The position numbers and the translations under genes were made by a program. Shown here piece after piece: positions 15,482 to 20,252 of a DNA stretch of 36,881 nucleotides (its first letter is position 1; each line of letters opens with the position of its first letter). The DNA is from a virus. The DNA is taken from the UHGV virus genome UHGV-0123951; one strand, 5' to 3'. Below the pieces are notes generated by a model. It was given only the letters and a program-made list of their open reading frames with translations. It ran no database searches and had not been told where the DNA came from.

Positions 15482-16939
15482 ATGCAGGTCACTATTGATG
15501 GTGTCCCGTATTTGCCTGCCTGTGCTTCAGCGTCACGGATTGGCATTGCGATTACCACCCACAACCGGGCGGACGTTTTAAAGCGTGCTGTTGAGCAGCA
15601 CCAGAAGCATCTGCCAGCCGGTGCGCTGCTGGTGGTTGTCGATGATGGTTCAAAACCTGCAGCGATAGCACCCGACGGCGTGCAACTGCTTCGCCATGAA
15701 ACATCACTCGGCATTGTTGCCTCGAAGAACGCCAGCCTGTCAGCCCTGATGGATGTCGGGTGCGAGCATCTGTTTTTATGGGATGATGATGCCTGGCCCA
15801 TCGCCGATAACTGGCATCTTCCCTACATCGAATCACCAGAGCCGCACCTGGCTTACCAGTTTCTGGATCTGGCTGGTCGCAATAAGCTGAACGACATGGC
15901 GGAGCTGTACCGTGATGATAAGCATGTTGCTTACACTGGTCAGCGCGGGGTGATGCTTTACTACCACCGCAGCGCCATCAAGAAGGTTGGCGGATTCGAT
16001 CCGGTATACGGTCGCGGCATGTACGAGCATCCCGATCTGGCGCTTCGGATTCACAACGCTGGTTTAACGTCGTGGGCGTTCGCTGATGTAGTTGGCTCTG
16101 AAAAGCTGATTCACTCAATGGACGAGTACGAAGAGGGCGTGCGCTCAATACCACGGCCTGACCGAGAGGCACTGGTAAAAAGAAACGTTGGCATCTTCAA
16201 CGCTCGACGCGACAGCGGTTATACAGGCTTTGCCTCGTACAGCAGAAATCCAAATCTAGTGATTACGACGCTGCTCACAAGCCAGCCAGACCCACAGCGA
16301 GGCAGGAAGATGAAACCCGACCCGCAGGCTCTTCAGGCTTGGGCAGATTCAATATCCGGCGCGCTGCCGATTGTCCTGGCTGACGAATTAAAAGAGTCGC
16401 CAACTGGCGCCGGTCTGTTTGAAGTCCCGCCGTTGGGCATGAGCCCATACTTTGCTCGCTGGCTTCACATCTATCAGTATCTTCGTGCCCACCCTGAATA
16501 CCATCTTGTCTGGTGTACTGACGGGACAGACGTTGAAATGCTGCGTGAGCCTTGGGCAGAGATGGCGCCGGGTAAAATTTACGTTGGCTCCGAGCACAAA
16601 ACCTACTTTGACGAATGGATGAAGGACAATCACCACGGCAAAGCTTATAGCGAGTTCTTCGAACTGCACCGGGATGAGCAACTGCTTAATGCTGGCCTGA
16701 TTGGTGGCTACCGTGAAGATGTAATGGAGTTCGCCCACCGGATCATCCGTCAGCATTACCTTATTGAAAGCCACCGCTTCTGGAAGATGGAAGCAGCTCC
16801 CGCCACGCTGGTGGACATGGGCGCTTTCGGGATGGCTGCAAAGTCATTCGGTAATCGAATCGTTACCGGCCCTCTGGTGCATACCATCTTTAAAACGGAT
16901 GGCTTCGGAAAGGAGACCGCATGGTGGAAACACAAGTGA
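15482..16939 (+). CDS. family 2 glycosyltransferase with ~250-aa C-terminal domain of unknown function (485 aa)
   Basis: GT2 signature (IAITTHNR ... LLVVVDDGS ... WDDDAW); no obvious membrane spans; GGAGAA RBS. Confidence 0.7.
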   Translation: MQVTIDGVPYLPACASASRIGIAITTHNRADVLKRAVEQHQKHLPAGALLVVVDDGSKPAAIAPDGVQLLRHETSLGIVASKNASLSALMDVGCEHLFLWDDDAWPIADNWHLPYIESPEPHLAYQFLDLAGRNKLNDMAELYRDDKHVAYTGQRGVMLYYHRSAIKKVGGFDPVYGRGMYEHPDLALRIHNAGLTSWAFADVVGSEKLIHSMDEYEEGVRSIPRPDREALVKRNVGIFNARRDSGYTGFASYSRNPNLVITTLLTSQPDPQRGRKMKPDPQALQAWADSISGALPIVLADELKESPTGAGLFEVPPLGMSPYFARWLHIYQYLRAHPEYHLVWCTDGTDVEMLREPWAEMAPGKIYVGSEHKTYFDEWMKDNHHGKAYSEFFELHRDEQLLNAGLIGGYREDVMEFAHRIIRQHYLIESHRFWKMEAAPATLVDMGAFGMAAKSFGNRIVTGPLVHTIFKTDGFGKETAWWKHK

Positions 16940-17511
16940 AGTATGTTGTGATTGGTCACCATTCCCGCTATGCCTCAGCTGCATTGCTGGCTGGCGAACT
17001 TGGCGCACACCTGCTTATCGATGAAGGGAATCACGGTGCGAACTGGAATCACCGGCGCGCTATCGAATGGGCTGCTGAGCAACCTTGCCGGGTAGTGGTG
17101 CTGGAAGACGACGCGCTGCCTGTACGTGGATTCAGAGACAAGATTACGGGCTGGCTGGCTCGTTTCCCTGGCGACATGCTTAGTTTTTATCTGGGCACTG
17201 GGCGGCCACCGCAATACCAAATGCAGATAGCTGAACGCCTGATTAATGCGGATAAGGTGAGGTCTGACTTCATTATGCTGCAACGCCTGATACATGGCGT
17301 GTGCTACAGCATACCGCCTCAAAGCATCAGCCGTGTGCTGTCTCAATGGGACTGCAGTAAGCCTGCCGATTATGCCGTGGGCGATGCTTATGGTGGCGTT
17401 GTCGTCTATCCCTGCTGGTCGCTGGTGGACCATGCAGACGGCGAACCGGTTGAGCGTCACCCTGACTCAGCTCCACGAACAGAACGCCGCCGGGCGTGGA
17501 GGTTAGCCTGA
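16921..17511 (+). CDS. hypothetical protein, possibly GT-A-like (196 aa)
   Basis: VVVLEDDALP segment resembles a DxD-type motif; AGGAGA RBS; overlaps the glycosyltransferase stop. Confidence 0.45.
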   Translation: MVETQVKYVVIGHHSRYASAALLAGELGAHLLIDEGNHGANWNHRRAIEWAAEQPCRVVVLEDDALPVRGFRDKITGWLARFPGDMLSFYLGTGRPPQYQMQIAERLINADKVRSDFIMLQRLIHGVCYSIPPQSISRVLSQWDCSKPADYAVGDAYGGVVVYPCWSLVDHADGEPVERHPDSAPRTERRRAWRLA

Positions 17512-17861
17512 TGCCTGCGTTAATACCGAGAGCATGCCGCAAGCGTGGCTGCCCTGGCACAACCACTGACCGCTCAGGCTATTGTCCCAAGCACCTTAAC
17601 GAAGGCTGGCAGCAGCATCAGCGAGGACAGAGCAGGCATCAGCGAGGTTATGGCAGCAAGTGGGACAGGCTGCGCCCAATCGTTCTCGACAGAGATAAAC
17701 ACCTTTGTCAGGAATGCCTGCGAAATGGAAGGTATACACCCGCTGAGACGGTGGACCACATCACCGCCAAAGCAAATGGGGGGACCGATGACCTGTCCAA
17801 CCTCGAAAGCCTCTGCAAGCCCTGCCACAGGGCAAAGACAGCGGTCGATAGGCTCAAATGA
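17511..17861 (+). CDS. HNH endonuclease (terminase-associated)
   Basis: Cys/His HNH pattern (CQECLRNG ... HITAKANGG ... NLESLCKPCH); GGAGG RBS; directly upstream of terminase genes. Confidence 0.8.
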   Translation: MPALIPRACRKRGCPGTTTDRSGYCPKHLNEGWQQHQRGQSRHQRGYGSKWDRLRPIVLDRDKHLCQECLRNGRYTPAETVDHITAKANGGTDDLSNLESLCKPCHRAKTAVDRLK

Positions 17862-18018
17862 TATAAATTCTCACTTGCAACGACAGAGGGGGAGGGCGGG
17901 TTGAAAGTTCAGGAACGACGCGCCAAAGGACCGCCGCCTAACCTCTTTTCACATCGCCGCAGGTTAGAAAACTTTTTTATGGGGTCCCCCATTCGATGAT
18001 TAATAGGAGTTTTCGATT
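17862..18018. other. candidate cos / packaging-site region
   Basis: Non-coding gap between HNH and small terminase with G-rich tract GAGGGGGAGGGCGGG and near-palindrome GGGGTCCCCC. Confidence 0.3.
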
Positions 18019-18516
18019 ATGTCTGGACCACCGAAAACCCCGACACATCTACGTTTGGTGAGGGGTAACCCATCAAAACGACCGATCAATGAAAACGAAC
18101 CAAAGCCTGCTGCTGGGGTACCCCCAACACCGAAGCATTTCGACAAGCAGGGGAAATACTGGTTCAAGCGTATGGCCGAAGAGCTCGATGCGCTTGGCGT
18201 CATGTCGCAGCTGGACGCGAGAGCACTTGAGCTTCTGGTTGAGGTATACACCGAGTACCGGCATCACTGCGATACGCTGGAGAGAGAAGGCTACACCTAC
18301 GCCGTATATAGCGACGAAGATCCAGACGAAGGCAAAGAGCGAGAAATACGCATGATCAAGGCTCACCCGGCCGCCATCATGAAAGCTGACGCCTGGAAAC
18401 GTCTTCGCGCCATGCTCGGTGAGTTTGGCATGACGCCAGCCAGCCGCTCTAAGGTGAATGCAAAAGGTCCTGACGTGGTTGACCCGCTGACCGAGTTTAT
18501 GAAAGCGAGGGATTAA
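18019..18516 (+). CDS. terminase small subunit
   Basis: Position and size; AGGAG RBS; start of next gene overlaps stop. Confidence 0.75.
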   Translation: MSGPPKTPTHLRLVRGNPSKRPINENEPKPAAGVPPTPKHFDKQGKYWFKRMAEELDALGVMSQLDARALELLVEVYTEYRHHCDTLEREGYTYAVYSDEDPDEGKEREIRMIKAHPAAIMKADAWKRLRAMLGEFGMTPASRSKVNAKGPDVVDPLTEFMKARD

Positions 18517-20252
18517 TGGCTAAGGTTGCAGAAGGCATCCGCTACGCCGAGAGGGTAGTGGCGGGGGAAATTATTGCCTGTGAGTATGTGCGCCTTGCCT
18601 GTCAGCGTTTTCTTGACGATCTGGCACATGGCGAAGAGCGTGGAATTTTCTTCAGTGAGCCGCGCGCGCAGCACATTCTGAATTTCTATAATTTTGTGCC
18701 TCACGTAAAAGGCGCGCTGGCAGGCCAGCCTATTGAGCTGATGGACTGGCATGTTTTCATACTGATTAATATTTTTGGTTTTGTTATCCCGCTGGTTAAT
18801 GAGGAAACAGGAGAAACCGTCCTGCGTAATGACGGCAGCGGTCGTCCAGTAATGGTTCGCCGCTTCCGTACAGCTGATGTTGAGGTGGCCCGTAAAAATG
18901 CCAAATCAACACTGTGCTCTGGCGTGGGGTTGTATATGGCTGGTGCCGACGGCGAGGGCGGGGCGGAGGTTTATTCCGCTGCAACCACCCGTGACCAGGC
19001 GCGAATTGTTTTTGAAGACGCGAAGAATATGGTCAAGAAGGCAAAAGCCACTCTTGGGCGGATCTTCGAATTCAACAAGCTCGCTATCTACCAGGAGCAA
19101 ACGGCCTCCAAGTTTGAGCCATTATCATCAGATGCGAACAACCTCGACGGCCTGAACATTCACTGCGCCATCGTTGACGAGCTGCATGCTCACAAAACCC
19201 GCGACGTATGGGACGTTCTGGAGACGGCAACCGGCGCGCGTCTGCAATCTCTGCTTTTTGGTATCACCACCGCTGGCTTCAACAAAGAAGGCATCTGCTA
19301 CGAACTTCGTGATTACGCCATCAAGGTGCTGCGCGGACTGGTAAAAGACGATACGTTTTTTGCCATCATCTACACCTTAGACGAAGGTGACGATCCCTTT
19401 GATGAAAAAGTCTGGCAGAAGGCGAATCCGGGGCTGGGTATCTGTAAGCGCTGGGATGACCTGCGCCGTCTGGCTAAAAAGGCGAAAGAGCAGGTTTCCG
19501 CCAGGATTAACTTTTTCACCAAGCACATGAATATCTGGGTTACCGCTGAGTCTGCCTGGATGGACATGATGAAATGGGAAAAATGCGAGTTTATCGCCCC
19601 GCAGCACGAGCTTAAAACCTATCCCTCTTGGGTAGGCGTTGACCTTTCAAACAAAATTGATATCTGTGCGGCCGCTAAAGTCTGGCGCGCTCCGGATGGT
19701 CATGTCCATGCAGATTTTAAATTCTGGCTGCCGGAGGGACGCCTTGAGAAATGTTCACGCCAGATGGCAGAGCTCTATCGTAAGTGGGCCGGGATGGACA
19801 AGCTGATCCTTACAGACGGGGATGTAATCGACCATGCTCAGATTAAGGAAGAGCTGCAGGTGTGGATTGCTGGCGAGAGTCTGAAAGAAATTGGCTTCGA
19901 TCCCTGGAGTGCTACGCAGTTCAGCCTTGCGCTGGCAGAAGAAGGGTTGCCACTGGTGGAGGTGCCGCAGACGGTTCGCAATTTCTCTGAGGCGATGAAA
20001 GAGGTCGAAGCACTGGTATATGGTGGCCGCTTCCATCACAGCGATCACCCGGTAATGAACTGGATGATGTCCAACGTAACCGTCAAACCTGACCGGAACG
20101 AGAACATTTTCCCGAACAAGTCCACACCAGAGGCCAAGATTGATGGCCCAGCGGCATTGTTCACAGCAATGAGCCGCGTTCTGGTTAACGGTGGCAACGA
20201 CCAGCAGGATCTTTCCGGATTCTTCAATAATCCCATCATGGTAGGTTTCTGA
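18516..20252 (+). CDS. terminase large subunit
   Basis: 578-aa ORF after small terminase with typical ATPase/nuclease layout. Confidence 0.85.
   Translation: MAKVAEGIRYAERVVAGEIIACEYVRLACQRFLDDLAHGEERGIFFSEPRAQHILNFYNFVPHVKGALAGQPIELMDWHVFILINIFGFVIPLVNEETGETVLRNDGSGRPVMVRRFRTADVEVARKNAKSTLCSGVGLYMAGADGEGGAEVYSAATTRDQARIVFEDAKNMVKKAKATLGRIFEFNKLAIYQEQTASKFEPLSSDANNLDGLNIHCAIVDELHAHKTRDVWDVLETATGARLQSLLFGITTAGFNKEGICYELRDYAIKVLRGLVKDDTFFAIIYTLDEGDDPFDEKVWQKANPGLGICKRWDDLRRLAKKAKEQVSARINFFTKHMNIWVTAESAWMDMMKWEKCEFIAPQHELKTYPSWVGVDLSNKIDICAAAKVWRAPDGHVHADFKFWLPEGRLEKCSRQMAELYRKWAGMDKLILTDGDVIDHAQIKEELQVWIAGESLKEIGFDPWSATQFSLALAEEGLPLVEVPQTVRNFSEAMKEVEALVYGGRFHHSDHPVMNWMMSNVTVKPDRNENIFPNKSTPEAKIDGPAALFTAMSRVLVNGGNDQQDLSGFFNNPIMVGF

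Follow-up and report, generated by a model that had tools for sequence, protein, structure and literature searches.

The 36,881-nucleotide viral genome UHGV-0123951, the whole of which is referred to here as the window, carries genes for an HNH endonuclease, a small terminase (TerS), a large terminase (TerL), and a portal, followed by a protease-like ORF and a capsid ORF, an arrangement that Pfam matches and ORF order identify as an HK97-like head module. Between the TGA stop codon of the HNH gene (17859-17861) and the ATG start codon of the TerS gene (18019) lies a gap at 17862-18018, the length of which is 157 bp, as given in an initial annotation made from the sequence. The genes and the translation signal in and around this gap are as follows:

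17511 to 17861, plus strand: HNH endonuclease gene, counterpart of HK97 gp74, with an alternative GTG start at 17496
18004 to 18009, plus strand: TAGGAG, ribosome-binding site of TerS; the sequence ATTAATAGGAGTTTTCGATTATG is almost invariant among relatives
18019 to 18516, plus strand: TerS gene, P27 / Terminase_4 family (Pfam PF05119, E 9.9e-24)
18516 to 20252, plus strand: TerL gene, HK97 gp2 homologue and presumed nicking enzyme (Pfam TerL_ATPase and TerL_nuclease)

The HNH ORF matches Pfam HNH (PF01844, E 1.4e-15) and is 49% identical to HK97 gp74 over 41 aa (E 4e-10), and TerL shares 28% identity with HK97 gp2 across 465 aa (E 2e-39). In contrast, comparison of TerS with HK97 gp1 by BLASTP, Pfam, and hhalign revealed no relation. 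A PDB sequence search with TerS likewise found no relative, and a single-sequence AlphaFold2 model of the protein (pLDDT 50) was too poor for a fold search.

Scans for other kinds of element returned little: an Rfam scan of 17600-18300 gave a chance snoRNA match alone (E 0.39), a promoter and terminator scan of 17300-18600 found neither, and a repeat search within the gap yielded just two repeats, one direct (9 nt) and one inverted (18 nt, weak). The former (TTCGATGAT / TTCGATTAT) is located at 17992-18000 and 18012-18020, with the TerS ribosome-binding site between its copies; the latter, at 17836-17853 and 17922-17939 and 72% complementary, would bring the last part of the HNH gene into pairing with the cleavage core described below and may be due to chance. 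Upstream of the HNH gene, between it and the lysis genes, are two ORFs of 485 and 196 aa (15482-16939 and 16921-17511) that are without a Pfam match; they may represent cargo, and other genes occupy this place in relatives.

Homology to the HK97 cos site

The cos site of HK97 has 10-nt 3' overhangs (PMC9410871, Fig. 1 legend; PMC11331095), the former source giving 10 nt in that legend and 12 nt in its discussion. In this literature, the cut is numbered as falling between -1 and +1, and the minimal TerS site, an A-tract included, spans +15 to +29 (PMC9410871; PMC11331095). The statement in the initial annotation that the HNH gene of HK97-like phages lies beside cos and assists terminase cleavage agrees with reports that the HK97 HNH protein, gp74, stimulates cleavage by terminase at cos (PMC9410871; PMC11331095).

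When the last 60 nt of the HK97 genome are aligned without gaps to the window at 17882-17941, 39 of 60 positions are identical. No other of the roughly 73,600 placements across the two strands scores as high: the mean is 15 (sd 3.4) and the runner-up reaches 32, which puts the 39 about 7 sd over the mean. Beyond the HK97 end, on its right, the similarity stops, with 26 of 80 positions identical, about background. Specifically, HK97 and the window have in common the G tract, its distance upstream, and an identical GACCGCCGCC. The HK97 record ends in ...GGGCAGGGGGGGGGATCAAATCTTCAAAACCTTTGCCCCAAATGACCGCCGCCAAA, of which the final 10 nt are CGCCGCCAAA following GAC, and begins with GTTTGAATTT..., with TerS at position 50. 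On this anchored alignment and shared core, the predicted cohesive end of the window is placed at CGCCGCCTAA (17932-17941), giving a predicted cleavage core of GGAC/CGCCGCCTAA/CCTC. Numbered such that +1 is 17942, the first base to the right of the predicted top-strand nick, the elements of the putative site and of the adjoining TerS gene are as follows:

17888 to 17900, plus strand: G tract GGGGGAGGGCGGG, -54 to -42 from the predicted top-strand nick, upstream cos element
17901 to 17925, plus strand: spacer of constant length and variable sequence, between G tract and core
17926 to 17931, plus strand: AAGGAC, conserved left flank of the core, with the predicted bottom-strand nick at 17931/17932
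17932 to 17941, plus strand: CGCCGCCTAA, predicted 10-nt 3' cohesive end (cosN-like), homologous to the last 10 nt of HK97, with the predicted top-strand nick at 17941/17942
17942 to 17954, plus strand: CCTCTTTTCACAT, start of the predicted left genome end, with moderate conservation
17955 to 17978, plus strand: CGCCGCAGGTTAGAAAACTTTTTT, block of A-tract and T-tract, +14 to +37, candidate TerS binding site (cosB-like)
17979 to 17992, plus strand: ATGGGGTCCCCCAT, hairpin-capable inverted repeat with 6-bp arms and a 2-nt centre, +38 to +51, accessory
18062 to 18071, plus strand: GGGGTAACCC, second GGGG-N-CCC motif, in TerS codons 15-18
18115 to 18125, plus strand: GGGGTACCCCC, third GGGG-N-CCC motif, in TerS codons 33-36

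The exact nicks and the 3' polarity given here are probable, the polarity and length of the overhang being assigned to the window by analogy with HK97.

The two sites are alike in lying between HNH and TerS genes, in the core GACCGCCGCC, in the equal distance of the G tract upstream, in their homologous TerL and HNH proteins, and in a T-run downstream of the nick. They are unlike in the sequence of TerS and in the downstream half, both of which are unrelated, as well as in the length of the gap (157 bp in the window, 368 bp in HK97) and the last four bases of the overhang (CTAA in the window, CAAA in HK97). Additionally, the palindrome of the window is an extra with respect to HK97, and where HK97 has its TerS site at +15 to +29, the window has an invariant block at +14 to +37.

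A further analogy (see also PMC5557969) is offered by the cos site of phage lambda (cosQ-cosN-cosB), which follows a comparable three-part logic: an upstream element about 30 bp from the nick, the nick site, and, beside the gene for the small terminase, a region that this protein binds. Lambda cos, however, has a 12-nt 5' overhang and no HNH partner; it thus differs from the window in overhang polarity and length and in the HNH partner, and the two lack sequence similarity.

Record ends of related phages

The database records of several relatives have ends at bases homologous to the predicted nicks. In addition to HK97 itself, the record of the Proteus phage Pm34, in TerS orientation, ends in ...CCTAGGAC and starts with CGCCCCCTTACCTCTTTTCAC, such that its break, GGAC/CGCC (GGAC/CGCCCCCTTA), falls at the other boundary of the homologous 10-mer. 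The record of the Pantoea phage AH07 ends in ...GTTCAGGGGCTAGCGACCTCCTGAC (CTGAC) and starts with CCTTTTTATGCAC (CCTTTTT). Exactly the 10-mer is absent between these ends, leaving AH07 10 nt short of all homologues, and the distance from GTTCAGG to GAC is 25 nt in AH07 as in the window. Sequencing of 3' cos ends produces a coverage trough between reverse and forward peaks (PMC5557969), and the loss of 10 nt from the AH07 record is what would be expected of such ends. The public AH07 record (MZ501270; loci L096/L097) thus stands without the 10-nt overhang. Lastly, in the record of Fraca, the first 124-127 nt are a fragment of the phage's TerL gene and are fused to sequence starting, within 3 nt, at window position 17942, a junction read as an assembly chimera formed at a physical DNA end. 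About 63 nt are repeated at both ends of this record (LR597645; L003/L004).

Other records were uninformative in this respect: that of mEp235 (JQ182731; L001) starts at the TerS ATG, that of KLB28 has ends without a cos-like motif, those of CharmingMan and VIPKPNMC05 were opened arbitrarily, and that of PSTRCR_117lys (MW358929; L009/L010), called circular, is missing 39 bp across cos. The literature searched contained no account of how the Pm34 and AH07 ends were determined, and nothing usable on the ends of Pm34 and mEp235.

These ends bear upon the alternative that the phage packages by the headful (pac) mechanism, which yields circularly permuted, terminally redundant DNA lacking unique ends, with the gap a mere intergenic leader. 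In favor of such an arrangement, Terminase_4 small terminases occur across several packaging types. It is nonetheless highly improbable here, given that TerL is homologous to the HK97 cos enzyme, that an HNH gene is adjacent, that the cos core is conserved, and that the record ends of relatives are unique and coincide at that core.

Conservation of the module

Conservation was assessed in 80 IMG/VR loci with TerS proteins 82-99% identical, and by a pattern scan of 185,579 species genomes that returned 22 true loci in 10 genera: Pantoea, Enterobacter, Leclercia, Morganella, Xenorhabdus, Rosenbergiella, Klebsiella, Citrobacter, Superficieibacter, and Pseudescherichia. A match in Achromobacter was rejected as chance. 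At the genomic loci, 91-92 nt separate GGACC from the TerS ATG, an HNH gene adjoins the site upstream, at variable distance, in 22 of 22 cases, and TerL follows TerS wherever the fetched stretch reaches that far. All 22 true matches lie in complete HNH-cos-TerS-TerL modules, and the scan of the 185,579 genomes yielded no orphan cos copies lacking TerS, which would be possible marks of satellites. Regardless of which gene lies upstream, 74 of 76 distinct IMG/VR loci and the 22 genomes retain, as one unit, the stretch that runs from the G tract to TerS.

Across 92 unique sequences, a set that is rich in close relatives and in which conservation is partly forced by the anchor pattern, the majority base accounts for the following mean fractions:

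-54 to -42, G tract: 0.87
-41 to -35, spacer: 0.74
-34 to -17, spacer: 0.64
-16 to -1, core: 0.95
+1 to +13, right of the nick: 0.89
+14 to +37, A/T-tract block: 0.98

The G-rich tract noted in the initial annotation, located here as GGGGGAGGGCGGG, is unique on the plus strand of the window, where no other 13-mer contains 11 or more G; a C-rich counterpart occurs at 1782, and about 0.9 such 13-mers are expected in Markov shuffles, both strands together. The tract is found in the same register in HK97, mEp235, Pm34, AH07, and the 92 unique relatives, and the stretch between it and the core is free of indels in the anchored comparison. It may be a cosQ-like element or a contact for TerL or HNH. 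In some relatives (L016, L078, L079), the variable spacer contains short self-complementary stretches such as AGGGAAATCACCCT and GGGCTTTGGCCC; the window's own spacer (17901-17927) has no clear stretch of this kind.

Close relatives are the mEp235-like phages (Nochtlivirus), which, together with prophages of Enterobacterales bearing P27-family TerS, have a cos region nearly identical to that of the window, and cos annotation is absent from their records. A single base separates the right half of mEp235 from that of the window, and CharmingMan shares 90% identity with the window over 17840-18040 and 94% over 17434-18600. Among complete E. coli genomes, only 19 of 5,426 contain the region, the closest chromosomal relatives being in Enterobacter, Pseudescherichia, and Citrobacter. 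One locus, L044 (IMGVR_UViG_2563366924_000002, locus 1-1200), is a natural hybrid prophage: its left side has a window-type HNH gene, a remnant of the 3' part of HK97 gp74, and a 450-bp segment sharing 97% identity with the right end of HK97, its right side has a window-type right arm, TerS, and TerL, and the two types join at the cos core.

The prophage-like nature of the segment raises the possibility that the site is a relic within a defective prophage and is no longer used. This appears unlikely, since the ORFs of the module are all intact and the cultured phages mEp235 and CharmingMan carry near-identical sites.

Taken together, homology to the HK97 cos, position relative to the flanking genes, conservation, and the record ends of relatives form the basis for assigning the gap, with a probability of roughly 85%, as the cos site of an HK97-like temperate phage of Enterobacteriaceae. 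The site very probably belongs to a known kind, the HK97-type cos, and is now placed to the base as a prediction. The initial annotation had proposed a cos site in this gap on account of its G-rich tract and a near-palindrome. Homology to HK97 and the record ends of HK97, Pm34, AH07, and Fraca support the proposal, whereas the two sequences singled out are better described as flanking elements, with the predicted nicks between them.

The right half of the site and its possible TerS specificity

The block CGCCGCAGGTTAGAAAACTTTTTT is kept in the phi467 group, the TerS of which is 64% identical, and, in outline and register, in AH07, with a TerS about 40% identical. In the latter, CCGC occupies +16 to +19 and an A-run followed by a T-run extends to +37. 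By analogy with the HK97 TerS site and its A-tract, CGCCGCAGGTTAGAAAACTTTTTT is a likely candidate for the site bound by TerS, although the TerS of the window is unrelated to that of HK97, such that the assignment draws only on position and conservation. The pattern of relatedness among the proteins, with TerL and HNH related to those of HK97 and TerS unrelated, matches the pattern within the site, in which the left half and nick are shared and the right half is not. As judged from sequence, the unrelated TerS would fit a right half that is specific to TerS.

The palindrome and intragenic GGGG-N-CCC motifs

The near-palindrome GGGGTCCCCC of the initial annotation is present at 17981-17990, within the longer inverted repeat ATGGGGTCCCCCAT. 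The window contains 54 perfect inverted repeats with 6-bp arms against 48 +/- 7 expected, and the palindrome alone is therefore not unusual; it is conservation that raises both it and the G tract above chance. Of 39 distinct variants at this position, 38 are predicted to retain a 3-7 bp stem and a loop of 3-4 nt (mean z -3.2 versus shuffles), the centres among variants being T, TA, AT, AA, TTA, TAT, or GTGA and the outer pairs being compensated as TT..AA, AT..AT, or, in Morganella and Providencia, CC..GG. As a transcription terminator the palindrome was rejected for both strands because the T-run precedes the hairpin.

Nucleases classically target symmetric sequences, and the initial annotation, by naming the palindrome, implied a cut at GGGGTCCCCC. 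That the gap is a cos site cut there or elsewhere, or cut with another overhang length or polarity, gains some room from the facts that the ends of the window are predicted ones and that the literature searched does not document how the Pm34 and AH07 ends arose. Such a cut is nevertheless quite improbable. The palindrome is absent from HK97, phi467, 640R1, and PhiR49_2, the last three of which keep both the core and the +14 to +37 block; in each of the four informative records the break falls at the core, never at the palindrome; and the 10-mer of the window is homologous to the HK97 overhang. Its absence where HK97 and the phi467 group keep the core marks the palindrome as an accessory element, dispensable in some relatives, and not as the cut site.

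The palindrome is not the last element of its kind, as three of the seven matches to GGGG-N-CCC in the window fall within 145 bp, the second and third of them inside the TerS gene. There, every sequence compared has CCA at codon 18 (53 of 53), GGG at codon 33 (52 of 52), and CCC at codon 35 (53 of 53), while the central codon 34 and the flanking four-fold sites vary (entropy 1.0-1.6). Arms frozen at synonymous sites suggest a constraint at the level of DNA or RNA, and the intragenic motifs may be extra TerS sites. In the phi467 group, R-G-N-P is encoded by CGA GGC AAC CCC and all three motifs are absent; their joint loss or presence could reflect a single evolutionary event.

Two readings of these motifs merit discussion. 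According to the first, the palindrome and the two TerS motifs are not packaging signals but RNA-level elements of the late transcript, for example a 5' UTR hairpin affecting TerS translation or mRNA stability. The palindrome is 27 nt upstream of the TerS start codon, its centre varies from 1 to 4 nt, and in L105 and L107 it pairs only by way of G-T (G-U), a variability of centre and mode of pairing that a folded strand would accommodate better than would a dimeric DNA-binding protein. On the other hand, no Rfam family, promoter, or terminator was found in the regions scanned, the stems are only 3-7 bp, the motifs lie inside the region to which HK97 cos function was first localised (-80 to +472; PMC11331095), and their loss in the phi467 group coincides with TerS divergence. 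An RNA role is a real possibility, if not the favored one.

The second reading, put forward tentatively and with rather low probability as a whole, is that cos here consists of two modules, joined at the nick and each open to exchange. The left one, comprising the G tract, a spacer fixed at about 28 bp, and GAC/CGCCGCC, would go with TerL and HNH and be common to phages with unrelated TerS proteins. The right module would be specific to P27 TerS and would reach into the TerS gene as three hairpin-capable GGGG-N-CCC repeats, with arms frozen at synonymous sites. If this is true, the repeats would be recognition sites for a TerS family that is without a solved structure.

A model for cleavage and packaging

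By analogy with HK97, a sequence of events can be proposed for the predicted cos site. From left to right, the site would comprise the G tract (-54 to -42), the variable spacer of fixed length, the core, the A/T-tract block (+14 to +37), the palindrome (+38 to +51), and the TerS ribosome-binding site. TerS oligomers would bind the right half on concatemeric DNA, whereupon TerL, aided by the adjacent HNH protein, would nick both sides of 17932-17941 to leave 10-nt 3' overhangs. Packaging would then proceed rightward from CCTCTTTTCAC through the TerS gene and would stop at the next cos, where bound TerS may stall the motor.

Implications

These analyses provide a base-level prediction of genome ends for a widespread group of Enterobacterales prophages that includes mEp235 and CharmingMan, the database records of which leave cos unmarked and were opened arbitrarily. 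Such a prediction would be of use for annotation, for interpretation of PhageTerm results, and for the design of cos-plasmid and transduction tools. Additionally, the HK97 core and the upstream G tract are conserved across phages with unrelated TerS proteins and the downstream half varies with TerS family, a combination of shared left and TerS-dependent right that fits the structural model of HK97, in which reading by TerS is confined to the downstream side. For the structurally uncharacterised P27 family of TerS proteins, a candidate binding site can now be proposed.
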